Positions 1 through 15,446 of a stretch of DNA of 15,446 nt are shown here, piece after piece. Every line of letters begins with the position of its first letter. Positions within the stretch are counted from its first letter, which is position 1. The notes beneath the pieces were generated by a model. The model saw only the letters and a list, made by a program, of their open reading frames with translations, was not told the DNA's origin and searched no databases. The DNA is from Geosiphon pyriformis uo1 (Eukaryota > Fungi > Glomeromycota). The stretch is from contig JAAOMT010000728.1 of the NCBI GenBank assembly GCA_016748015.1, forward strand, positions 1-15,446. Reading direction: 5' to 3'. The position numbers and the translations under genes are program-made.

Positions 1-2347
1 AATTTGCATTGGCTTTAAGAAGCCAATCATTTCCGACTAGAGCTTAGTATTGGGATGTATCCATAACTAGAACTTTGACTGAAATGGTGATTCCATTAAT
101 AGTGAATGGGAAATTGTCAATCTTTCTCACTGGTGTCTTTTTCATGCCATCTGCAGTTACAATTACAGTTTGGGCTGGTTTGTCAACAGTTCTTTAAAGT
201 TGTTGTATTAACTGGTAGGTGATAATACTTCCAGCTGATCCACTGTCTAGAATTAATCAGATGGATTTTCCTTCTACTGTGGCTTTAGTATATATGGCAG
301 TAATAGCTTTTTGTTCATTAGCTGCTGTATTACTAAGCAAGAATGGTGATTCATTTGCTTCAAATTCGAATGGAAATATATTTGAGAGGTTGGCATTTTG
401 GGCAATTTGGGCTGGTAGAATAGTGTTGTTGGAAGAATTTGATCTTGATGCTGCAACTTTACCTTCAGAAAGTGCAGTTTGTTGAAAATCCGATCCTTTA
501 GGCATTGTAAAATAACTGGGTTGAGTGTGATAGTGATTGGGTCTTTGCTGACCAGAATTTTGGGAAACCAACTGGTTATTTGGGTTGATTCTGTTGTTGT
601 TATTCTGAAATTGATTTTGAGATGTGAATTGGTTATGTTGAACCAATTTTCTGGCTGGTACTTAATATTGTTGAGTGAATGGTATTTGATATTGCTGAAT
701 TGGTAAAGGTTGCTAATATTGTTGTTGCATTGGTTGTAGAGCTAGTTGATAGTAACTGTTTTGATTTTGTGGTCTTGGTAAATAATAAGTTGGTGGTGGA
801 GATTGGTAATAAAATTGTTGTAATAAAGAATAACGTTGATTACTCCTGTTTTGTTGGTCTCTTTGCAATTTTCTGCAATCTTGTTTCCAGTGTCCTGGAA
901 TTCCACAATAATGACAATTTTAAGGTTGGTTGTTGGATGGTAATTCAAAGTTGTTTTGGTTGCATCATTGTGGTGGTTGATATCTTTGTGATTGCTGCTG
1001 CTGTTGTTATTAATTGGTGAAATAGTTTTCAACTTTTTTTGTGAGTTGGTCTATTTTCTCTTCAGCTGCTGAGCTGGTTTCTCCAATAGCTAGGTTGACA
1101 AGTTTGGTGTGGTTTGCTTCTTCCATAGCCATTTTATAGTTCTTTATATGTCTAATAGCAGTTGTTAAGTTTTCTGGGGCATATAGACAAACTTTTTTAA
1201 TTAATTTGTCCTTTAATTTTGCTATAAACTGATCCAGAATCTGGGCATCAGAATAGTATTCATTGGTTTCCAATTGCCGAATTCATCAAAAAAGTTTGTT
1301 AAATCTTCCCAGATAAGTCATAACAGTTTTAGATGTTTCTTGTTTGATATTGCAAAACCGATTATAAAGAGTAATAGATGTGTTGTTGTCAGTGAATTGT
1401 TGTAAGAAAGCATCTTTGAATGCTTGCCAGTTTTCAAATGGTTCTTCTAAATTTTCAAACCATTCTTCTGCAGTTTCTTGAAGGAAATATGAGATTGCTT
1501 TGAGCATTCTTGCTGTATTCCAACCATTTAAATCTCCTGCTTTCTGAATTTTATCAAGCCATTCTTGAGGGCTGGTATTATTGTCTTCACCAGTAAATTC
1601 TGAAATTTTTGCAATATAAGCAGTTGCCATTTCTTCTTCGTTTTCTGTGGTTTTTTTTTGTTTTGATTTAGTTTCTTCACTTTCCAAGTTTTCTGAATGA
1701 TTACTTTTGTTTTCTTGTAAGTACTCAATAATATTGGTGCTTGTTGATATAGGTTCTTGCTGTTGAGTAGGATTTCTAGGTGACTGAAAGTCTTCTAGTC
1801 TGGAGAAATGGTTAAGTAGTGAACTTGGTGTTTGTGGTTGAACAAATAAAATTGGAAATGGTGTAATAGTAAGTGGTAATTTAACACTGGTTCTTTGTTC
1901 AGGTGTTTGTAAGTGTTTGGCAGTTGTTTTTGGTAGTATTGGAGTGTTTGGAGTGGTTCTTGAGTATTGTTTCACTTTTTGTTTGCCTTTATTGCTTGTT
2001 TCTGTTTCTGATTCAAAGTCAATAGAGTATTAAGACTGGACTGGATATGTTTCTTCACAATACTTGATAATATTAAAATTGAGTTCCTGAAAGTAGGTGG
2101 CAAGTGTGTTACTGTTAAGATCTTCAGTTCCCAACTGTGAATAGTGCACTAAATTATTGTAAAGGTTGCTTTTCACTTCTGAAATGTTGTAATTTTCAAA
2201 AAGATAATTGTTGATGCAGTTTTCAATATATTGGTATACTGATTTTTTGACAACTTCAATTCCGTCTGGGATGTTGAATCTTTGCTTGCAGTAAGTGTAA
2301 ATTAACTGATAATACTCTAGAATTGCTGTGTCTGGTGTGGTCACCAC
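1..2347 (-). pseudogene. gag: gag-protease polyprotein pseudogene (single frame, many premature stops)
   Basis: ORF pieces 2030-2347, 1286-1975, 1010-1273 and 257-646 are all in one frame. Capsid-like region starts at ATG 1630 (MATAYIAKISEFTGED...QEWL...WFENL...FKDAFLQQF). CX2CX4HX4C (CHYCGIPGHWKQDC) at 875-916. Protease DSG at about 240-248 and ALVGNDWL near the window edge. Confidence 0.92.
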
Positions 2348-2614
2348 TTTGAATTTGTTGTTGCTGTGTTATTTCCATAAAAAAGCACCAAATGTTACTA
2401 GAAGTTTTTAGTTTTTCTTGAATGTTGTAAATGTTGATTTTGCTGTGAATTCACGTTTCTGGGAAGTAGTTGGATCTTCAATAACTGAATTTATCTTCAA
2501 ATTATCTTCTATAATTTGAACTGCTGGGCTTATAAGTAGAATGACCAATTCCTTGCCAGTTACTTTATGTAGTTATGTTGTAGTAAATGTTAACTTTTTC
2601 CCAGAAATTGCTTA

Positions 2615-2629
2615 TCTGGAAGCTCACTA
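2615..2629 (-). promoter_or_regulatory. candidate primer-binding site (decayed TGGCGAGC..., tRNA-Arg-like)
   Basis: Minus strand reads ...ACTACACA-TTT-TAGTGAGCTTCCAGA, identical to copy D at 10730-10744. Reversing one G>A and one C>T gives TGGCGAGC. The restoration is inferred. Confidence 0.5.
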
Positions 2630-2632
2630 AAA

Positions 2633-3357
2633 TGTGTAGTTCTTTTACTTTAAAAGTCAACTCTTCTACAAGAATCTTGTCTGTAGACTACCCTAATGAT
2701 TGTAATAAAAATAAAAGAAAAATAAAAGAAATGTAAAGGAAATAGAATTCTGTTAAGGAAAACGTTTTCTATTCAGGCCTGAAGTTACTAACAGATTACT
2801 GAAATTGGTAGCTAATTAATTTCAAAATGTTAGTTGTGTTGAGAGAATTTCAAGTACAATAATCAAAGGATTTGGGTTTTGAATATTTAATTTTTATTTA
2901 AAATATGTAAAAGGTGATTTGTTTCAATTAAAATATCTAAAGTAGGATACTATAGTAAGATACTATGAGAAGATACATTTTCTTGAAGAGAGAAGCTCTT
3001 CTTTTATACAACTTGTAATACTAGTTTTTGAACTTGTACTTTTCTCTTTGCTACAATTTGGGTAAACTAAAGATATATTTTGGCGAATTTACAAGTTATT
3101 TTACTGAACTATTGATTATTTCGGCAAATTTTCATTAATTTCGGCGAATTTTGACTATGTTAAAAGGTTCAGAGTATTGTGTAATTTGATTATCTTAATT
3201 TCTAAAATACAAATCGGATTATTGATTAAGTAATGATATTTGATAATTTGATTAAATAATAAGTGATAATCGAATTAATAATAATGTATGCTAATTAATA
3301 ATAGGAATTATAAGGGTAATTTCATGCTAATTAATAGCTAAAATTCTACTAGTAACA
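2633..3357 (-). repeat. 5' LTR of copy A (about 725 bp; inner end inferred)
   Basis: TGT...ACA termini; homology to 9984-10725 begins exactly at TGTTAC; TATAAAA at 3008-3002 and AATAAA at 2898-2893 on the minus strand; followed by a PBS-like sequence. Confidence 0.78.
3056..3150 (-). repeat. U3 array: five copies of a 13-bp motif at 20-21 bp spacing
   Basis: Plus-strand units atttgggtaaact (3056), attttggcgaatt (3077), attttactgaact (3098), atttcggcaaatt (3118), atttcggcgaatt (3138). Confidence 0.8.
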
Positions 3358-4925
3358 ATGCTAACCGAAAAAAACTATAGAACATCAGCACTAGAACATT
3401 TAGCAATTTATTGGGCTGTCATGAAATGGAAGGAATATTTAAGCCAGAAATTTGAGATATATACTGATCACAAAGGATTAACTTCAATTCAGAAGCAAAA
3501 ATTTGGAGACAATTGACATGTGAAATAAAAAATAGCACTTTCACTATATACTTTTACAGTACACTATAAAAAGGAAAAAAAAACAGAAATGCTAATGGTT
3601 TGTTGCAAATAAAACAAATCTGAACATTTCAACCCAAAAATATAATAAAAGATGAATACACAAAAATATTAACAACTCCAGTATTATATAAATATTTAAC
3701 AGTTTAAAAAGAAACAAAACAACATAAAATAACAATTAAAATATTTTATCAACCATCAAAATATACTTTACCAAAAAAACAAAAGAAATCCAAATCAACT
3801 AATTAGAGTAATTACAGAATCAGAAAAAGAGACAATATTGTTCAACATGCATTTAGATCCAACAGCAAAACATTTTTATAAAGAAACAACCATGAAAAAA
3901 ATCAAAAAAAATACTATTGGCCATCAATATATTCAGACATCATTCAATATATTCAAAATTGTGATGCTTATTAGAGAAGAAGAGAAATCAGATCCAACAA
4001 ACCATTGAGACCAATCAAAGTGAGACAATTATTTGATCATATTAAGATTGACTTAGTTAGACCATTAACAATAACCAGCAAAGGAAACAGATATATTGCA
4101 GTAACTATGGATTACCTTACTAAGTGGCCAGAAGCCAAAGCCATTTAAAAAACAGATGCAAAATCTGTTGCCAAATTTGTTCATTAAGATCTAATTTGTC
4201 AACACAGATGTCCAAAAAAACTACTATTAAATCAAGGAACTTACTTTGTAAACAAAACACTAGCAGAATTAAGTCAAAGATTTAGAATCAAAAAACCATT
4301 ATTATCACTATACAATCCACAAACAAATAGTTTAATTGAAAAATTTAACAGAACATTGTATGAAGCAATTGCCAAAATCAGCCAAGAAAATCAAAACAAA
4401 TAGGATTTATTTATACTATCAGTATTATTTGCTTATCAGACAATAAAACAAAACACTACACAAACAACACTATTTGAATTAATATATGGTAGAACAGCAA
4501 TATTACCAATAGAAATAGAAGTCAGCACATATCTAACTGAACCAATAACAGAAGACAATTTTCAAAAAACATTGTTGAGAAGAACATATAACTTAATAGA
4601 AACACTAGAAAACAAATAATAAAGCACAGCTAATAATATTCAGAAGTTACAAAAAAAACAATGAAGTGGAAAATTTGACCCCAAATGAGATGAACCATTT
4701 CACATAAAAGAAATTCTAGAAAATAGAGCTTATAAATTAAGATTGAACAACAAAATCTTAACCAAAGCAGCACATGGAGATTAACTGAAATCATATTACA
4801 ATATAGCATTATCATTTACCAGTAATATTTTACAATTGAAAGTAAAGAGAATACTAGTCCAACCAAATAAGATTTCATGAGATTTAGAACCAATCATCAT
4901 CATTGACACAAACATATCAAATTGA
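3358..4925 (+). pseudogene. pol: pol 3' half: RNase H and integrase (HHCC, rve core, GPY/F module)
   Basis: Manual translation: EKNYRTSALEHLAIYWAVMKWKEYL..FEIYTDHKGL (RNase H); MHLDPTAKH (3847-3873)...CDAY (decayed HHCC); IDLVRPL..KGNRYIAVTMDYLTKWPEAKAI; NQGTYF; YNPQTNSLIEKFNRTL; FELIYGRTAILPIE; GKFDPK*DEPFHI...AYKL...HGD*LKSYY; ends LEPIIII...stop 4923-4925. Confidence 0.93.
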
Positions 4926-4949
4926 TTGACCAAAAGAATATATAAAGAC

Positions 4950-5600
4950 ATGATAAACATGATAGAAAATATCAAAAAAATAGAAATTATTAACGAAATT
5001 TACTTGCTAGCACAACAACTCTTTTAATTAATTCAACAACAAAATATAGAAATTACTATCAACTATTCGATACAAAGATACCAAAAAAATACCCCAATAC
5101 AAAGTACAGAGAAAACCAAAAAACACCATCAACAAAATAATTCTAAAAGTAAAATTGGCAATAGAAGAACCAATAAGTGTTATCTCATATCAAGAATTAA
5201 CCAAAAAAACTTGAAAGTAGTGGATACAAGAATTTCTAAAAAACTTTTGTTATTTTCACTTAAAACAATATTTGAATATCTAGAACTTATATATGAATAA
5301 AACAAAGCAATTATTCAATCCAGAAATATTACAACAACTTGAACAATTTGTGAGAAAAAATAATTTAACCACACAAACATGAGCCATCTATTAATTACAA
5401 GTTGGATTTCAAGACTGACCAGAAATCTTACTCAATTCAACAATAGACTCTATTACCATTAACCAAATAGGAAAATAACCAATGCCCAATTTGAGGAATT
5501 ATAAAACAAGATAACACAAGTAATTCTTGAAAAAGAAGTTCAAAAAATACTCAAAGATGGAGAATTAGAATTAAGAGATTTTGACAGAGCTCAATATTAA
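4950..5600 (+). pseudogene. extra ORF (ORF3) between pol and PPT, unknown function; decayed, with an 8-nt frameshifting deletion near 5063
   Basis: Aligns codon-wise with 8766-9428(-), with many synonymous differences (e.g. EIYLLAQQLF, WIQEF..NFCYF, RAIY.LQ..FQD.PEIL, NQIGK.TNAQFEEL, ILEKEVQ). Both copies end in ...RAQY-TAA. Confidence 0.7.
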
Positions 5601-5610
5601 AAGAAGAAAA
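5599..5610 (+). promoter_or_regulatory. polypurine tract of copy B
   Basis: AAAAGAAGAAAA ends 3 nt before the LTR start; same geometry in copy C. Confidence 0.75.
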
Positions 5611-5613
5611 TAA

Positions 5614-6528
5614 TATTACTTATAGAATATAAGAAATATATTAGCATATAAATTAACCAATCAGAAGTAGCTGTAGTAAATATGAAATTCTAAGATTTTT
5701 TTCAAAGAAATTGCAAAATTTTAGGAATTTTAGAATTCTCATACAAAGAATTGCAAAATTCCAGAATTCCAGAATTCTCATACAAAGAATTGCAAAATTC
5801 CAGAATTCCAGAATTCTCCTTAAAAGAATTATAGAATTTTAGATATGAAAAAATGAGAAATTAAGAAATCTTAATTATGTATATATAATAGTAACACTAA
5901 AAGCAAAAAAGACAGACTTTTCAGTTTAGATTTTATCTAAGCAATCTTTAAATTTACAAATATCAATAAATAATTATTTGCTATCTCAATCCACTCTTTA
6001 CTATCAACACTTTATGTTAATAGTACTATATACTTGACTATACTGAAACAATAGCTCTTGATCATAGCTATTGACAAAATACTAACTTAATTGTTTTGGC
6101 TTATTTTTCTTTATTAAACTTTCTTTTCTTTTATTTTTCTCTTTATTGTTGTATACTAATTGTTTAAAGATTAAGTGCTGAGTTACTGACATTAGAATAT
6201 AGCACTGGTAAAAGACCTAGGAATAAAAGTAGACACTCAAATTTGAGGATAGCTTACTAGAAAATTGCTGGCCACCACACCAAGAAAAAAATTAATGGAA
6301 TTGTAATTCTGAGAAGCAACAAACAAAACAAAACAACTTAACTTGAGGGTTAATACTTGAAACATTACTAAAAAAGAATCACATTTGAACTTCTGTTTAT
6401 TATACAAAAAATTCTAACCAAAGCTTTCAGATAACCAAAACCTTCAGATCATAACTATTATATTAGCTATTAGTACTAAGTTACAGGTTTGTTATTTGAT
6501 TTAAAACTCCAAATAATCATCTATAATA
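5614..6528 (+). repeat. 3' LTR of copy B (about 915 bp)
   Basis: Termini TATTAC...ATAATA, read as decayed TGTTAC...GTAACA; homology with copy C stops here (C ends CTGTAACA); TATA-like run at about 5880, AATAAA at about 5965, T-rich tract at about 6100-6150. Confidence 0.83.
5704..5842 (+). repeat. 39-bp tandem repeat (about 3.5 units) built from GAATTC(C/T)A-like subunits, in U3 of the family-2 LTR
   Basis: aaagaattgcaaaattccagaattccagaattctcatac at 5745 with a near-identical unit at 5784; degenerate units at 5704 and 5823; diverged equivalent at about 8545-8685. Confidence 0.88.
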
Positions 6529-7925
6529 TTGCTTACTACAACTCAAGAACCAGAGCTAACCTCCCAACATGCTCAATAAATAGAATGAAAAATGTTATAA
6601 ACAAAATATCTAAAATTACCAAAAACAATACCACCACCAGCCTTAATGAAATGCTTATTAATTTAATAAAGAAGGTACCAGCCAGAAAAGAAAGCAGATT
6701 CCATGAATGCATTAGTGGCTTTATTGTCTAATATACTTGAATGTCTCTTCACTTTATGTCAGCTAACTTTCAAATTTCTATTATAAATAGCACCCACAAT
6801 ATGGTAATGTTTAATCCAATACTGGTTCTGAAAATTCAGACACAACAAACTCAATTCTGATTTATAAGTATTTAAAGCAGCCTAATTGTCTAAGAAGAAA
6901 TAAACCAAACTGGAAGGCAGTATACACTCAAGTGCCAGCATAATAGCTTGCAACTCTGTCATAGTTGAAGACACTAAACCAGAAATTCTAACACCCAAAC
7001 CCAAACCAATATCTTTAAAAAAAGCAGCTGTACCAGTCCTCATATCAATAGTTTCTAAACCACAAAGAAACCCATCCATATAGACAGAGAGAGGACTAGC
7101 ATTAACATTCAACAAATGGTTACAAATGACTTTAAACTCACTAGAATCAAGAATGTTTAACAAACTAGTGTTCTTAAGAAGAAAAAAACTAGCAGAAAAA
7201 AAAGCCAAACTACTGAGAAAACAAACAGAAAGATCGAACTATTCAAAAACAGAGCCATGTGAATCCAATTTCTTCTACTACTTAAATGTTTTCCAATTAA
7301 AAACCATATCATTTCAGTCATAAAGCTGTTTTACAAAAGCTATTCTATACTGTCATAGCAAAGAAACACACTTATAAAATTTCAACACACCAAAAACAAA
7401 AAACATAGAAGTACCACTCCAAAAATAAAAAGCATTAGTTATAAAACTATTCAAAAACAGATTACACTTCAGAAAAATGCAGACTATCCCAGCTAAAAAA
7501 TTGTTCAAAAGATTAACACCCATACAAACTGGAAAGAGCACGAAATAATATGGAGGCCAGTTGAAAACCTGAAAATTATGTAATCTATGAGCAAAAAAAT
7601 GGCCCCAAACTCCAATAAAATTAACAAAACAAACAATAGAAGCCAATTTGTTCTTAGTCTAAATTTGTTTAAAAGATTTTAAATCATTTAAAAAAAAGTG
7701 ATGGAGTGCATTATTAGAAAAATTGGAAAGAAAACCAGATTTAGATTTCAAATTTTTGTGAATCAAAATGTCTTACTTATTATACAAACTAATAGAAATA
7801 AAACTGAATTAAGTCTTATAACTGATAATTAGATGAAGAACTGCTGAAACCAAATACAAAAATTGTTTGTTAGAGACTATCTTCCTCAAAACCAAATTGG
7901 CAAAAAACTGGATATCTGAATATAC
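6529..7925 (-). mobile_element. non-LTR retrotransposon (LINE-like) ORF2 fragment: post-RT thumb/connection plus RNase H; pseudogenised
   Basis: One minus frame across the segment (ORFs 7353-7646 and 6882-7208 are in frame). RNase HI motifs VYMDG (D at about 7075), SSTMTELQAI, FFLDN*AAL, *HKVKRHSSILDNKA (decayed WxKVKGHSG..GN..AD). This is the cellular/LINE type, not the Ty3 type. Confidence 0.85.
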
Positions 7926-8752
7926 TGTTACAGATAATTATTTGCATAATTTGGTGCTAATTTACTCGATGATATTGGTAATATCTGAAGGTTTTGGTAA
8001 TCTGAAAGTTTTAAGTTAGAGTTTTTTGTTTAATGAACAGAAATTAAATGGTGTACAATTCTTTAGTAGTAAGTCTTCCAATTTTTTTCTTTAACTTAGT
8101 GGCCAGTTTATTCTGCCAGTCATGTCTTTCTGGTAAGCTATCCAATTTTCACTTTGTACCTTTCTATTTGGGTCTTTTACCAGACTATCTGTGACATTAA
8201 TAACTCAATACTTAATTTTTAATTAATTAATCAACAACAAAAATAACAAAAAAAAAGAAAATAAAAATAAAAGAAAATAAAAAAATAAGCCAAAATGATA
8301 AATGTTAGTATTCTATCAATAGCTGTAATCAAGAGCTATTGTTCTAGTGTGATTAAGTATTGGCCACTATTAACATAAAGTATTGATAGTGTAGAGTAGA
8401 TTGAGATGGCAAATAATTATTTATTAATATTTGTGAATTAAAAGGTTGCTTAGATAAAATCTAAACTAAAAGGTCTAACTTTTTTACTTCTAATGCTACT
8501 GCTATATATACATATTTGAGGTTTTTCAATTCTTCTATTCTTCCTGTCAGGAATTCTGGAATTTCTAGAATCTTGTAATTTCTCGAAAGAAATTCTGAAA
8601 TTTTGGAATCCTGTGATTTCTTATATAAGAATCCTGTAATTCTTGGAATTCTACAATTCCTCTGAAAAAAATCCTAGAATTCCCTCTTTTATTATGTCTA
8701 TTTCTGATTGGCTAATATATACTACTATAATTTTTATCTTTTATGAGTAATA
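7926..8752 (-). repeat. 3' LTR of copy C (about 827 bp)
   Basis: Minus strand TATTAC...GTAACA; homologous to 5614-6528; LINE coding sequence resumes at 7925. Confidence 0.86.
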
Positions 8753-8755
8753 TTA

Positions 8756-8767
8756 TTCTCTCTTTTT
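8756..8767 (-). promoter_or_regulatory. polypurine tract of copy C
   Basis: Minus strand AAAAAGAGAGAA, 3 nt before the LTR. Confidence 0.75.
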
Positions 8768-9428
8768 AATATTGAGCTCTATTGAAATTCTTGAACTCTT
8801 CTAATTCTCCTTTTTTGATTATTTCTTGAACTTCTTTTTCAAGAATCACTTGTGTTATTTTGGTTTGTAATTTTTCAAATTGGGCATTGGTCATTTTACC
8901 TATTTGATTAGTAGTAACTGTGTTTATTACTGTGTTAAATAGTATTTCTGGTCAGTCTTAAAATTCAGTCTGTAATTAATAGATGGCTCTTGCTTGTATT
9001 GTTAGATTGTTTTTTTTCACAAATTGCTCAAGATGTTATAGTATTGTTGTATTAAATAATTATTTTGTTTTATTTATATATAAATTCTGAATATTCAAAT
9101 ATTGTTCCAAATAGAAATAACAAAAGTTTCTTGGAAATTGTTGTATCCATTAATTCATGTTTTTATTATCATCTCTTAATATGGTACACCTTTTGTTTGT
9201 ATTTTTATTGCTGCTTTTACTTTCATTATTACCTTGTTAATAATGTTTTCTGGTTTTTTTTGTTCTTTGCATTGAGGTCTCTTTTTTGTATTTTTGTATC
9301 AAATGATTTGTTGGTTAATAGTAATTTTCATATTTTGTTGTTGAATCAGTTGGAAGAGTTGTTGTGTCAGTGTGTATATTTTGTTAGTAATTTCTATTTT
9401 TTTGGTATTTTTTTGTTACATATATCAT
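8766..9428 (-). pseudogene. extra ORF (ORF3) of copy C, about 220 codons, unknown function
   Basis: Homolog of 4950-5600. C-terminal part reads HLEQFVKKNNLTIQARAIY*LQTEF*D*PEILFNTVINTVTTNQIGKMTNAQFEKLQTKITQVILEKEVQEIIKKGELEEFKNFNRAQY*. Stops fall at plausible CAA/CGA/TGG sites. Confidence 0.7.
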
Positions 9429-9451
9429 GTCTTATATACTCTTTTGGTTGT

Positions 9452-9983
9452 TTAATTTGATGTGTTTGGTTTAATAATTATAATTGGTTCCAGATTTCAT
9501 GAAATCTTATCTGGTAGACTAGTATTTGTTGTACTTCTAGTTGTGAAATATTATTGGTGAATGATGATATTATAGAGTGATATGGTTTCAGTTGATTACT
9601 ATGTGCTGCTTTGGCTAATATTTTGTTGTCTCATCTTAATTTATAAGCTTTATTTTCTAGAATTTCTTCTATGTGAAATGGTCCATCCTAATTGGGATCA
9701 AATATTTTACTCCTTTGTTTTTCTGCTTTGGTATAATGTAAAAATACTTTGTTTCCAATCCTGAATTCAACTGGTTTATCTAGTAGTTGGTTATTATGTC
9801 TTTCTTTTTGTTTTTCTTGTGACTTTTCAATATTATCAGCTGCTCTTCACTATTTGTTTTCTAGTGTTTCTATTATGTCATATGTTCTTCTCAACAATGG
9901 TTTTTAGAAATTGTCTTCTGTTATTGGTTTAGTTGAATATGTGTTGACTTTTATTTTAACTGGTAATGTTGCTGTTTTACTGT
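9452..9983 (-). pseudogene. pol: integrase C-terminal part (GPY/F module) of copy C
   Basis: Minus strand encodes TATLPV..., EFRIGNKV, FDPN*DGPFHIEEILENKAYKL, LEPIIII; homologous to about 4486-4925. Confidence 0.88.
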
Positions 9984-10200
9984 TGTTACCAAACGAAATT
10001 AGAGATATCATTTAGCATGAAACTATCTTATAATTCCTATCATTAATTAGCATATATTATCATTCAAATTATCACTTATTACATTAACAAAAAAAAAAAA
10101 AATGTCCAAAATTATCATTTAATTAATAACCCAAATTGTACACAACACAAATGTAACCTAATTGTGATATTCAATCATGTAATACCCCAAACTATGTAAC

Positions 10201-10321
10201 ATTCAAAAGTTCATCAAAATTTATAGAAATTTACCGAAATAATTGATAGTTCACCAAAATATCTAATAGTTTGCAGAAATAACTTGTAGTTTGCGAAAAT
10301 GTATCTTTAGTTCAGCAAAAT
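10201..10321 (+). repeat. U3 array: six units with 20-bp period
   Basis: attcaaaagttcatcaaaat / ttatagaaatttaccgaaat / aattgatagttcaccaaaat / atctaatagtttgcagaaat / aacttgtagtttgcgaaaat / gtatctttagttcagcaaaat. Confidence 0.82.
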
Positions 10322-10369
10322 TATAGAAAATAGCAAAGTTCAAGTTCATAGAATAGTGTTATGACAAGT

Positions 10370-10378
10370 TATATAAAA
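10370..10378 (+). promoter_or_regulatory. LTR TATA box
   Basis: TATAAAAGAAGAGC is conserved between A and D; it lies downstream of the U3 array and about 80 nt upstream of AATAAA. Confidence 0.65.
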
Positions 10379-10729
10379 GAAGAGCTTCTCTTTTCGAGAA
10401 AATGTATCTTACTTTAGATTTATTACTTGGAACTATTCCTACACACAAAAAGAAATAAATATCAAATAATTTGAAAAACCAAATTCTTTAATTATTGTAC
10501 TTAAAAAATCTCCAAAACCCAACTAACATTTCGAAATTGATTAGCTACCAATTTCAGTAAAACTGTTAGTGACTCCAGGCCTGAATAGAAAACGTTTTCC
10601 TTGATAAAATTCTATTTCTTTTACATTTCTTTTATTTTCTTTTATTTTCTTATCATAATTATTAGGGTAACCTACAGACGAGATTCCTGTAGAAGAGTTG
10701 ACTTTCACAGCAAAGTAACTACACATTTT

Positions 10730-10744
10730 TAGTGAGCTTCCAGA
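10730..10744 (+). promoter_or_regulatory. candidate primer-binding site (decayed TGGCGAGC...)
   Basis: TAGTGAGCTTCCAGA after ...ACACA-TTTT; identical in copy A. Confidence 0.5.
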
Positions 10745-11013
10745 TGAGCAATTCCTGGGAAAAAGTTGACGTTTACTACAATGTAACTACATAAAGCAAC
10801 TGGCACTGAATTGGCCATTCCACTTATAAGCCCAGCAATTCAAATTATAAGAGATAATTTGAAGATAAATTCAGTTACTGGAGGTTCAACCACATCCAGA
10901 AAATGTGAATTCACAGCAAACAGGCATCAACAACATTCAAGAAAAGAGACCAAAAACCTTTGGTAACATTTGGTGCTTTCTCACGAAAACAACACAGCAA
11001 AAACAACTTCAAA

Positions 11014-12910
11014 GTGGCAACCACACCAGACACAACAACTCTAAAGTATTACCAGTCAATTTACACCCACTGCAAGCAAAGATTCAATATTCCAGACAGA
11101 ATTGAAGTTGTCAAGAAATCAGTATACCAATACATTGAAAACCGTATCAACAATTATCTTTTTAAAAATTACAATATCTTAGAAGTTAGAAGCAACCTTT
11201 ACAATAATTTAGCACACTATTCACAGTTGGGAACTGAAGACTTTAACAGTGAAACACTTGTCACTTACTTTTATGAACTTAATTTTAATATTATCAAATA
11301 CTGTGAAGAAACATATCCAGTGCAGTCTCAATACACTATTGATTTTGAATCAGAAACAGAAACAAATAACAAAGGCAAAAACAAATTGAAGCAATACTCA
11401 AGAACCACCCCAAATACTCCAACATTACCGAAAACAATTGCCAACCATTTACAAACACCTGAACAAGAAACCAGTTCAAAACTTTTACTTACTATTACAT
11501 CTTTTCTAGCTTCACTTGCACAAGCACAAATGCCTAATTCACTCTTGAATCGATTTGCAAGACCAGAAGATTTTACAGCACTCAGAAGTCCTATCAGACA
11601 ACAAAAACCTCTTCAAACTAGTTCCAATCTCCTTGATTTTCTAGCTGAAAACCAAAGTGAACACTCTGAGACAACAGCAAATGAAGAAAACAACTCTGAA
11701 ATAACTGAAGAAGAATCAATAAACAGTAAAAAGGAAGAAGACAAAATGACAACATATATCGCAAAAATCCCTGAATTCAATGGAGAAGATATTGAGACCA
11801 GTCTCCAAGAATGGCTCAACCAAGTTACTAAAGCTGGAAATGCAAATGGATGGAATGCTGCCAGAATGTTAAGAACAATTCCCTACTTTCTCAAAGAAAC
11901 AGCAGGAGAATGGTTTGAAAACTTGGCCACCCCATTCAATGATTGGAATGCTTTCAAAGCAGCCTTCCTTGAACAGTTTACCGACAATAATACCTCCATC
12001 ACTCTTTGTAATCATTTTCAAAATATTAAACAAGAACCCTCTGAATCTATTATGACTTATATTGGGAAATTCAACAAACTTCTCAGACAAATTCACCAAC
12101 TCAAAACAAACAATTATTATTCCGATGCTCAAATCTTGGATCAATTTATCACTGGTCTAAAAGATAAACTAATTAAAAAGGTTTGCCCACATGCGCCAAA
12201 AGATTTAAACTCTGCCATACAGCATGCAAAAAAATACAAAATGGCCATGGAAAAGGCCAATTGCACAAAACTTGTAAATTTGGCAATTGGAGAAACCAGC
12301 TCAGCAGCTAAGGAAAAAATTGACCAACTCACAAAAAAGATTGAAAACTATTTCACCAATCAACAACAACAGCAACCCCAAAAATATCAACCACCCTAAA
12401 GATGAAATCAAAATAACTTTGCACCACTTTCCAATAACCAGCCTCAGAATTGCCATTACTGTGGAATCTTTGGCCACTGGAAAAGAGATTGCAGAAAGCT
12501 ACAACAAGACCAACAAAATAGGAGTAATCAATATTATCTTCCACCACAGCAATCTTATTATCAACTGCCACCACCAGCTTACTATCCACCAAAATCCCAA
12601 TACCAAAATAACTATTATCAGCCCACCCCACAGCCAATTCAACAGCAATACCAGCAACCACCTACACAACATTATCCAGTACCTGTTTGAAGACTGATTA
12701 CACAAAATCAACTCACTCCACAAAACTGATACCAAGTAAACAACAATAGAATTGGTTCGAACAACCAATTAGCTCCCCGAAATTCCACTCAACCAAGACC
12801 CAATCACTACCACACTCAACCCAGTTATTTAACAATGCCAGAAAAACAGGATTTTCACCATATTGCACTCTCAGAAGGTAGAGCTGCAGCACAACAACAA
12901 CAAAACCCTT
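11014..12910 (+). pseudogene. gag: gag: N-terminal extension, capsid (from ATG 11746), CCHC knuckle, Q/N/P/Y-rich tract
   Basis: 479-aa ORF 10960-12399 contains retrotransposon-gag-like IPEFNGED..EWL..GW..WFENL..W.AFK.AFLEQF..IKQ..ESIMTYIGKF..QFITGL. The frame continues through CAA/CGA-derived stops to CHYCGIFGHWKRDC (12451-12492). Confidence 0.92.
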
Positions 12911-13049
12911 CTTATACTCTCACCACAATCCTACCAGCCAGAATTGCTAAAAACACTAACTTTTCAGATATATTCCCTTTTGAGTTCAAAGCAAATGAGT
13001 CACCATTTCTGCTTAGCAATGCAGCCGCCAATGAACAAAAAGCAATCAC

Positions 13050-13410
13050 AGCCATGTACACTGAAGCCGAAGTCGAAGGAAAGACAATTCGCTTAATCCT
13101 AGACAATGGATCTGCCAGAAGCATTATCACCTACCAGTTAATGCAACAGTTGAAAAGAAATGTCGACTGACCAGCTCAAACAGTAATCGTCACTGCTGAT
13201 GGCATGAAAAAGATCCCAGTAGAAGAAATTGACAATTTTTCATTCACTCTTGATGGAATCACCATTCCAGTCAAAGTTTTTGTAATGGACGCATCCCAGT
13301 ACCAAGCCCTCGTCGGAAATAATTGGCTTCAAAAAGCCAATGCTAATCTGAATTAGGAAACATAAGAATTAACAATCTCCTACCAAGGACAACACACTCA
13401 GGTACCTGCC
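13050..13410 (+). pseudogene. retropepsin-type aspartic protease, in frame with gag
   Basis: EAEVEGKTIRLILDNGSARSII (DSG in copy A), flap VIVTADG, and QALVGNNWL. Confidence 0.92.
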
Positions 13411-13620
13411 ACTTGTGGTACATTCAACAAACGCTCTGAAAAAGCCCCAGCTTTTGAATTCGAACCGGAAGAGAAAAAACCCCTCATTAAAACATTTATG
13501 GCTCTTGGATCAACGTCCAACTGGGCTGATGAAACAGAACAAGAACATTTTACCCCACACTCTGAACCTGAAACCTCTGAATAGAATATCCCTTACTCAA
13601 AACCTGAACCAAGGAAACAA

Positions 13621-14240
13621 TGCCCCTATATTCCCCTTAAATGTAAGGACTGCCACAAGAAACTATCATCAATGGAAGCCTGTATTTCACCTGAAGAAAA
13701 ATATGAAAATCATACTTGTTATTACTACAAGACTTGCCACAGAGAATGATGAGGCTATCTAATAAAAAAGAGCAGAAAATAAGACAACACCTCTTGTTTG
13801 ACTTGTGGAGATATGCTACTGAAAGAATGCAATTGGATTGATGTAGCCATGAGAGAAGAAGTCTGCAATCAGACCTGCCAATATGCTTTATCAATTTCAG
13901 AAAAAGTAAAAAGAGGAACACCCTTTAATGCAGCATACAACAGTGCTTTCAACAAACTTTATCACTACCCCCATAATGCCAAAATGATTTTCAACTTAGC
14001 AATGGCATTAATTAATTACCAAAGAAGATGTTCGCCAAATGAAGGAAGCAGAATATATTGAATATATCATGGAATTAGCTGGATTTGATTATGAAGACGA
14101 AGTAAAAGTCTACCACCAAATCGCAAGTTACACCTACCCAACCCAAGAAGCTCAAATTCAACAATTAGAGCAAATGAACATTAGGCTATGTGAAGAATGC
14201 ATTATGCCTTGTGATGAACAGTAGTGTCCTGAATGTTACG
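13621..14240 (+). pseudogene. Cys-rich insert of unknown function in the polyprotein (three putative C4 zinc sites plus helical region); frameshift at about 14017
   Basis: CKDC(13642)...[Y/C]KTC(13726-13737); CLTC(13795)...CNQTC(13864-13878); CEECIMPCDEQ*CPEC(14189-14236). In frame with protease upstream and with dUTPase downstream. Confidence 0.72.
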
Positions 14241-14359
14241 CTCTTAGCATTCCTTTGCCCAGCAAAAATGATGAATACAAAATTGAATTCGGAGAACTTG
14301 AAGTGACAGAAGAAATTGAGACAACACTCACCTATCTCATTGAAAATCAGCCTGCTTTA

Positions 14360-14788
14360 CAACTTAAATATTTCAACAACAATGGACAAGGAATAAAACC
14401 AGAAAAAGCCCATGAGATCAATGCTGGATATGATCTAAGATATCCAGGAAAAGATACTCTTACTCTTAAACCCAAATTTTTCACAAAATTCAACCTCAAA
14501 ATTGTCCTCAAAATCCCACCAGGAGCAATGGTTCAAATTGCTTCTCAATCATCCTTGGCAAGCAAAGGAATCAATGTTAGAGGAGGAATCATTGATGCTG
14601 GATACACAAGAAACATCACAGTCATGTTACAAAATGAAACTAATAAACCTTTCAAAATTGGATATGCTGATAAAATTGCTTAAGCTATCTATTTACCCTT
14701 AATCAACATTTCGGGTTTACAATTAGTTAATCAAAGAGAACAGTTGGGAAAAAGCGAAAGAGGAACAAAAGGTTTTGGTTCAACTGGA
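14360..14788 (+). pseudogene. dut: trimeric-type dUTPase domain within pol
   Basis: All five motifs in order: AGYDL (14423), ASQSSLA (RSS, CGA>CAA), GGIIDAGYTRNI, KIA*(Q) and RGTKGFGSTG. Confidence 0.95.
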
Positions 14789-15226
14789 CATTTCACAGTT
14801 CCAGTAAACATAGCTTTCAATGAACAGAAAGAATCACACCAGATTTTACAACTTCCACAACCAATTATCATTTCACCCTTTGGAGAACATCCTGAAATTT
14901 ACATTTGTGAAAAGCCAACAACTACACAACAAATTTTTGAATCAAACAAACAAATCTGCTTGAAATATAATATCTTGATCCCAAACATTTATATTCCAGA
15001 AGGAACAAAGAAAGTCCGAGTTACTTTTTACAATCCCAACAATTATCCCATAATTTTATTAAATAACTTAGAAATTGGAATCATTCACAGTAACATCTTT
15101 CAACAAAAATTACTCCAAACAGTCCCTGATTTTTCTGAAATTATTGGACATTCACTACCAAAAATCAACACAAATCTCAGCTCCAAAAACTACCATATTG
15201 TTATAGAAAAACTATCTTGAATCAAC

Positions 15227-15446
15227 ATGGGACAACTTGAACCACAACAACAAAACCAGCTCAAGAAACTAATTGCAAATTTTGCTGATATTTTTGCCAA
15301 AAACAACAATGACTTAGGAAGAACCGATTTGGTGCAACACCAAATCTATACAGGAGATGCCAAACCAAGGCGACAACAAGCCTACCGAGTTGCTCCAGAA
15401 AGCCACCAATTTATCCAAGAAAAAGTACAATAGACGCTTAACAATG
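15227..15446 (+). pseudogene. pol: N-terminal lead-in of Ty3/Gypsy reverse transcriptase (truncated by window end)
   Basis: QLKKLIANFADIFA...DLGRTDLVQHQIYTGDAKPRRQQAYRV...FIQEKVQ is the typical pre-RT segment; same frame as dUTPase. Confidence 0.9.

Follow-up and report, generated by a model that had tools for sequence, protein, structure and literature searches.

How does a ribosome reach the capsid start of a retrotransposon when about 1.35 kb, part of it coding, lies between the promoter and that start? The question is raised by two copies of a Ty3/gypsy element in the fungus Geosiphon pyriformis, copy A on the minus strand and copy D on the plus strand of contig JAAOMT010000728.1 (positions 1 to 15,446; this whole stretch of 15,446 nucleotides (nt) is the window). 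Both copies are 5' halves of elements of one family, containing the capsid, protease, dUTPase and the start of the reverse transcriptase (RT), and both run off the window. A sequence-only reading had described the interval between the promoter in the long terminal repeat (LTR) and the capsid ATG as an ATG desert, the mark of an AUG-free leader selected for long-range ribosome scanning. The desert is real; it is coding sequence, however, and the part of it that is ancestral is shorter than had been claimed. The arrangement favored here, at a probability of about 0.6, is that inefficient initiation at a conserved GUG would produce a long Gag, and leaky scanning past that codon a capsid-first Gag, from one RNA.

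The sense strand of copy A has a single ATG between 2975 and 1631 (2376-2378), copy D has six between 10405 and 11745 (10744, 10781, 10903, 11273, 11530, and 11681), and none is common to both copies, all as previously counted by eye. In dinucleotide shuffles, the one ATG of copy A compares with 12.2±2.8 expected (0 of 1000 shuffles as low as 1) and the six of copy D with 15.0±3.1 (P ~0.001), so the depletion withstands the shuffled control that had been suggested for it, and ATG is the most depleted of the 64 trinucleotides in each copy. Four downstream controls have normal numbers (26 vs 28.5, 23 vs 23.6, 41 vs 35.6, and 23 vs 24.4 expected), and the opposite strands of the interval have 20 and 15 ATGs; the depletion is therefore strand-specific. 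The interval consists of ~580 nt of LTR and ~770 nt of internal sequence. Of the two, the internal part is the more depleted (A 1 vs 7.9, P 0.0007; D 3 vs 8.4, P 0.013), the LTR part less so (A 0 vs 4.3, P 0.006; D 3 vs 6.4, P 0.06). Counted from the GTG to the capsid ATG, ATGs number zero in copy A (717 nt) and three in copy D (732 nt). The interval also begins just past an ATG that is common to both copies (A 2978, D 10402).

Whether the few remaining ATGs were inherited can be judged from other copies. CpG is depleted (observed/expected 0.18-0.27). Allele percentages are from contigs of one public DNA run piled up on copy D, with weights that are depth sums, not copy counts; for one of the two pile-ups, 40 of 387 variant rows were considered. 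The only ATG of copy A lies in the primer-binding site (PBS), and at the corresponding site (D 10984-5) the pile-up has C>T in 25% and G>A in 36%, as expected of an ancestral ACG; its earlier attribution to CpG decay is borne out by this two-way decay. The ATGs of copy D had mostly been explained as ACG>ATG, which fits 10903 (ACG in ~90%), but at 11530 the common form is ACA (~93%). At 11273 most family proteins have Gln-Glu and the remainder His followed by Glu or Lys (25 and 21), which reads as CAC-GAA, and at 11681 the residue after Asn is Glu in 48 cases and Lys in 38, in agreement with AAC-GAA. The two ATGs of U5 also depart from that explanation. Position 10782 is T in ~71% with no change of the following G among the variants reported, making ATG-TAA at 10781 the majority form, and no alternative allele of at least 12% appears at 10744-10746, where 8 of 360 gene models, from both subfamilies, begin. 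The ATG at 10744 lies 20 nt from the edge of the pile-up, where variants may be under-reported (a change expected from the proteins 12 nt from the other edge does not appear either); it is probably ancestral, opening an upstream open reading frame (uORF) of 16 codons.

The U5 region of the family is thus probably not AUG-free, and the claim that the active element had no AUG before the capsid start is unsupported, given the majority ATG at 10781, the probable one at 10744, and the TATA-proximal ATG in both copies. Ribosomes crossing U5 would have to leak past these short uORFs or reinitiate after them. The ATG at 10744 had also been considered as a true start if the intervening stops proved absent; they are present, with TAA at 10792 in ~85% and two further stops, at 10858 and 10906, that both copies share and for which no alternative allele is reported. 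In its strict form the sequence-only reading holds that a single AUG-free leader runs from the cap to the capsid and that the upstream frame is untranslated or vestigial, and the ATG-free LTR part of copy A fits this. The U5 ATGs just described, together with the signs of a translated extension given below, make it highly improbable.

Other features of U5 are recorded here as observations. An ACG at D 10805 (ATG in up to 32%, and the start of many gene models) was rejected as a start codon, as its frame is not that of gag and its variation looks like CpG decay. Near this ACG, which has a good context, a second frame of ~60 codons (10787-10966) opens and then ends at the LTR end; comparison of copies A and D showed no signal of selection in it. 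Both copies have an intron-like stretch in U5 (10557-10665; A ~2693-2800) with GT donor candidates, a long pyrimidine tract, and TAG. Alternatively, it could be a downstream polyadenylation element, there being an AATAAA at D 10454 and A 2898.

Past the PBS, the reading frame of copy D is open from 10909 into the capsid, and it is continuous in the family proteins as well, with no separate upstream reading frame closed by a stop of its own. Transversions between copies A and D in this extension occur at 10 of 67 fourfold sites and 26 of 447 non-degenerate sites in the gag frame (P 0.017); the same test on the capsid gives P 5e-10, and no such enrichment was seen between the copies in the other two frames or in distal U5. 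The only indels between A and D in the extension are of 12 nt and 3 nt, while the LTR has 24 gaps of mixed length, and copies of the diverged subfamily align without gaps at 56-71% identity. In these pairwise alignments, BLOSUM scores exceed those of neutral simulation only modestly (+0.12 to +0.19 vs -0.33±0.32 and -0.44±0.27). An AlphaFold model from a 30-row alignment has four helices in the N-terminal domain (mean pLDDT 81.5) followed by a low-complexity linker, and the extension is read as a predicted four-helix domain plus a linker that is likely disordered. A second family (family 2; 67 proteins), with a capsid 40-43% identical to that of the family of A and D (family 1), has an N-terminal domain that is homologous to that of family 1, with 18% identity (hhalign probability 87.7, E 3.4e-6, 92 columns; reversed control 1.05). 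That the extension was translated is indicated by this homologous domain, by the confidently predicted fold, and by purifying selection. It has no Pfam match, and fold searches of the domain gave nothing significant (best Z 6.9 with root-mean-square deviation 3.4 over 99 residues; no Foldseek match with E<0.001), a result that does not establish a new fold. Identity between A and D is 86-88% in distal U5 and the helical domain (10669-11370) and 72-73% in the linker and capsid (11371-12330), and other copies (P0144, P0148) join a diverged domain to a D-type or an A-type linker; this pattern suggests that domain and linker modules were exchanged by recombination.

The codon that could start this extension is GTG (A 2347, D 11014). 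In both copies it is the first in-frame near-cognate codon flanked by a purine at -3 and a G at +4, and it lies 46 nt past the LTR. Of the Val codons used downstream, GTG is the rarest (2 of 41). The start column in family 1 has decayed to Met eight times and to Ile once, while the other 11 Val columns have decayed to Ile 56 times and to Met five times, a difference that confirms GTG across the family. The family 2 domain opens with Lys/Thr/Asn/Ile-Val-Ala, and in the profile alignment its start is at most two residues from that of family 1. Among the 42 of 67 family 2 proteins with this motif, the start residue is Val in 35, Met in five, Leu in two, and Ile in none, and the residue before the start Val has an A-starting codon in 39 of 40. 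A GTG start is thereby suggested for family 2 as well, from the proteins. At the other end of the extension, a Met two to four residues ahead of the first conserved capsid Tyr is present in 104 of 114 motif-bearing proteins of family 1 and 37 of 49 of family 2; the exceptions have Ile or, once, Val. This position coincides with the start of the Ty3 capsid profile, and its shifting distance from the Tyr would be allowed if the Met were a start codon.

The avoidance of ATG between these two codons extends across families. In 120 family 1 proteins, Met occupies 19 of 26,519 alignment cells in the extension (0.07%) and 317 of 13,614 in the capsid (2.3%), and Met is the majority residue in none of 250 extension columns and in five capsid columns; no inherited ATG was found in any frame between the PBS and the capsid ATG (~770 nt) in this family. 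Subfamily 3 has four Met cells in 904, all within the last 15 columns ahead of the capsid. Out of frame, codons for Asn, Asp, His, or Tyr preceding a G-starting codon are of the form xAC in six of six cases in the extension, whereas ~7 of 10 in the capsid are xAT (Fisher P 0.011), a classification that is approximate, as it draws on decay rates as well as on the DNA of A and D, and a CpG decays slowly when the next base is G or T. Permuting the codons of copy A leads to an expected 5.2 junction ATGs, and none is observed (P 0.0007); for copy D 5.6 are expected and two observed (P 0.052). At the downstream Met rate (26 of 1344), the chance of having no Met is ~0.009 for 243 codons and 0.0035 for the 290 codons of family 2, where the extension has no majority-Met column in 283-310 columns (three references) and a Met frequency of 0.17-0.28%, compared to 1.5-1.6%.

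These features can be placed in one sequence of events. Transcription would begin at a cap near D 10400, close to the TATA box, and ribosomes would pass U5 by leakage past, or reinitiation after, two or three short uORFs. A minority would then initiate, inefficiently, at the GUG and make long Gag, and those remaining would scan ~730 nt further to the capsid AUG and make capsid-first Gag. At any AUG in the extension, ribosomes would be lost to the capsid start, and this accounts for the purge in all frames. The likely purpose is one of dosage, with many capsid-first Gag molecules for the shell and few that have the accessory domain on a flexible tether. Selection for long-range scanning, as first proposed, is therefore retained for the PBS-to-capsid stretch, which looks AUG-purged in the family and for which scanning across a coding region is the simplest reason, but not for U5; and the long-leader view missed the conserved GTG, which would make this a two-isoform system rather than a long leader.

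Several findings weigh against this arrangement. When the proteins of the decayed copies are recoded synonymously, no more than 1.2 out-of-frame ATGs are expected (A 0, P 0.14; D 2), and this control lends no support. Most of the avoidance therefore sits in which residues are used and in what order, a pattern that constraints on the protein could create as well. ATG-free runs of 433 and 407 nt occur in low-complexity parts of copy D as well. The same two observations favor a reading in which the extension is translated from GUG but lacks AUG only because of what it is made of, having neither Met nor Trp and a low-complexity linker, the capsid being released by the protease and its Met incidental. 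That reading is unlikely in view of the small chances of a Met-free extension in both families, the deficit of junction ATGs in copy A, and the capsid-start Met, which both families have at varying offsets. U5 probably has AUGs, which any scanning ribosome would have to pass. No stable hairpin was found 3' of the GTG (-4.8 and -7.3 kcal/mol). For family 2, the GTG start is deduced from proteins, the out-of-frame test saw only two Tyr-G pairs with intermediate decay, and the capsid AUG is preceded by Pro or Gln codons, giving C at -3 and only a moderate context. All copies seen are decayed, the evidence consists of DNA and gene models of one species, with no relative outside Geosiphon found in the searches made, and the proteins are gene models with unreliable introns, picked by similarity to the query.

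The U5 AUG at D 10744 can also be read as the start of the long Gag itself. A 13-codon exon would then be joined, through a GTAACT donor at 10783, to an acceptor lying in frame within the extension, and ribosomes that leak past this weak AUG would reach the capsid AUG. The AUG at 10744 is in the gag frame, probably ancestral, and the start of the few gene models mentioned above; the donor G shows no alternative allele, and a phase-0 CAG is present at D 11053 in both copies. Joining to 11053, however, drops the first 14 residues, including part of the helix 1 that aligns with family 2, and the CAG at 10921 is not conserved. Splicing would also leave unexplained the GTG with A at -3 in two families, the Asn-Val lineages of family 2 have no AG ahead of the GTG, and the gene models use many different acceptors; on balance this is distinctly unlikely. 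Still less probable is a route to the capsid AUG other than linear scanning from the cap, whether a downstream promoter, shunting, or internal entry, with the long form made from another RNA. A leader of ~1.35 kb with uORFs would lie ahead of the capsid AUG, and caulimovirids are described as shunting past such leaders (PMC5902531), but D 10680-11060 folds no better than shuffled sequence (z -1.28, for one decayed copy), and a route that skips the extension gives no reason for an AUG purge across the whole of it.

Initiation at GUG followed by leaky scanning has known counterparts outside retrotransposons. Non-AUG initiation is described as inefficient and generally part of a leaky-scanning arrangement (PMC3542737). 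The glyco-Gag of murine leukaemia virus starts at CUG, and also at an upstream GUG, in strong context and in frame with gag; gammaretroviral extensions of this kind are generally AUG-free, with short uORFs tolerated, and a minor long and a major short Gag are made, the ribosome density on the extension being 6.7% of that on gag (PMC5778647). As far as sequence goes, the Geosiphon elements resemble it in their strong-context, in-frame, near-cognate codon upstream, in the AUG-free extension (for family 2, in frame only), and in the short uORFs. They differ in belonging to fungal Ty3/gypsy elements known from DNA, in having a 244-codon extension with a predicted four-helix domain of no matched fold, and in a short form that begins directly at the capsid; homology to glyco-Gag is not claimed. 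In rice tungro bacilliform virus, an AUU start is followed by scanning across ~895 nt of AUG-free coding sequence to the capsid-containing polyprotein, and the leader has uORFs (PMC3542737, PMC5902531). The Geosiphon stretch of ~730-770 nt before the capsid AUG, with leader uORFs, is similar to this badnavirus arrangement, but in the virus ORFs I and II are distinct genes, each closed by a stop, and a shunt bypasses the leader, while the Geosiphon frame is fused to the capsid and the single decayed copy folded above showed no stable leader structure. Among Ty3/gypsy elements, Ogre and Diaspora also have a long interval before the capsid start: the 873-nt interval of Diaspora has no long ORF and that of Ogre has a 550-codon ORF of unknown function, and neither a non-AUG start nor an in-frame extension is described in the parts of that source drawn on here (PMC1142308). 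Fungal ribosomes are described as using near-cognate codons in Neurospora cpc-1, where they produce N-terminally extended isoforms from an RNA with uORFs (PMC5487733); this is a host transcription factor in Dikarya, not a retroelement.

Table 1. Coordinates in the window of the features of copies A and D.
Feature	Position	Strand	Description
Copy A 5' LTR	2393..3357	-	965 nt, TGTTAC...GTAACA, 9-nt inverted ends; 75% identity to D LTR
Copy A TATA box	3001..3008	-	TATAAAAG; aligns to D 10372; putative promoter role
ATG common to A and D (D 10402)	2976..2978	-	near presumed cap, ~30 nt past TATA; uORF of 13 codons in A, 18 in D
Copy A site of D 10744	2613..2615	-	ATA
Copy A site of D 10781	2576..2578	-	ACA
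Copy A PBS	2375..2390	-	starts TGG, 2 nt past LTR; contains the only ATG of A (2376-2378)
Copy A GTG	2345..2347	-	ttcaaaGTGg, candidate long-Gag start; aligned with D 11014
Copy A N-terminal domain of extension	1991..2347	-	119 codons; A-specific stop 2030-2032
Copy A linker	1631..1990	-	S/T/P/Q/E-rich, ATG-free
Copy A capsid region	992..1630	-	ATG 1630 (gaaATGg); Retrotrans_gag, Ty3_capsid
Copy D 5' LTR	9984..10968	+	985 nt, 10-nt inverted ends; 28 loose contig ends behind 10968, with a depth drop there
Copy D U5 uORF	10744..10794	+	16 codons, weak context cagATGa, gag frame but stop-closed; includes ATG-TAA 10781
Copy D PBS	10971..10986	+	starts TGG, 2 nt past LTR
Copy D extension	11014..11745	+	GTG candidate, predicted four-helix domain to ~11370, linker; 244 codons, open, in frame with capsid
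Copy D capsid	11746..12399	+	ATG 11746; Ty3_capsid profile position 5 maps two residues ahead of Met

Assignment of A and D to Ty3/gypsy is based on 5' LTRs with TG...CA inverted ends, a PBS adjoining the 5' LTR, and a Ty3-type capsid followed by protease. Pfam matches are to Retrotrans_gag (1e-13) and Ty3_capsid (7e-9), with pieces of the protease below the cut-off. As in other Ty3/gypsy elements, the capsid, protease, dUTPase, and RT start appear to follow the LTR and PBS in one frame; in copy D (11746-15433) this frame appears to include a zinc knuckle after the capsid, copy-specific breaks aside, and there is a Cys-rich stretch between protease and dUTPase. Copies A and D are inserted, in opposite orientation, in the RNase H/integrase region of two other elements, B and C (window 3359 and 9983), which are 77-86% identical to each other and have an LTR different from that of A and D. 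Segmental inversion of whole A/B and C/D units was considered and rejected, as the shared junction sequence is the LTR start and B and C do not share the A/D LTR. Tandem repeats of 39 nt are located immediately upstream of the 3' LTRs of B and C (5686-5843 and 8540-8690). Between B and C are fragments of a further element (6480-7660), including an RNase H-like stretch on the minus strand (6882-7238) that has no Pfam match and by eye resembles parts of P0170 and P0040.

Of 394 homologues of the region, the best 120 are without exception Geosiphon pyriformis gene models, in keeping with that fungus as the host. In the capsid search, the 120 of 163 matches considered are all from Geosiphon. In a search of representative sequences, 10 of 69 matches were looked up and consisted of nine Geosiphon proteins and one ankyrin false positive. 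Viral contigs contained no relatives, metagenomes none with a capsid alignment, and the ESM Atlas no usable match; one metagenome match to the domain query (L001) was rejected because its frame lies opposite an unrelated ORF of 806 amino acids. In the literature, mostly open-access main texts, no published case was found of an LTR-retrotransposon gag with a non-AUG or GUG start, leaky scanning, an N-terminal extension, or isoforms. LTR sequence is reported to make up 41% of the Geosiphon genome in PMC11952901, the main text of which does not mention gag.

The mechanism itself is known from viruses; what appears to be new is its likely use in a retrotransposon, through an in-frame extension headed by GUG and retained in two diverged families. 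Where gag is annotated from the first ATG, such an extension is invisible or is patched with invented introns, and the gene models of Geosiphon differ widely in how they begin it. Other retrotransposons could be screened for an AUG-free, coding, in-frame stretch past the PBS that starts at a conserved near-cognate codon. A more tentative and rather doubtful extension of these results is that the whole Geosiphon Ty3/gypsy clade evolved a glyco-Gag-like strategy independently of retroviruses, with a GUG, retained in families whose accessory domains share only 18% identity, metering a few capsid-tethered copies of a new four-helix domain into each particle, possibly for integration targeting or for countering host silencing. 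If initiation at GUG does occur, Geosiphon elements would be translated in a manner already described for gammaretroviruses and plant pararetroviruses, and the extension would give them a new accessory domain with a testable function.

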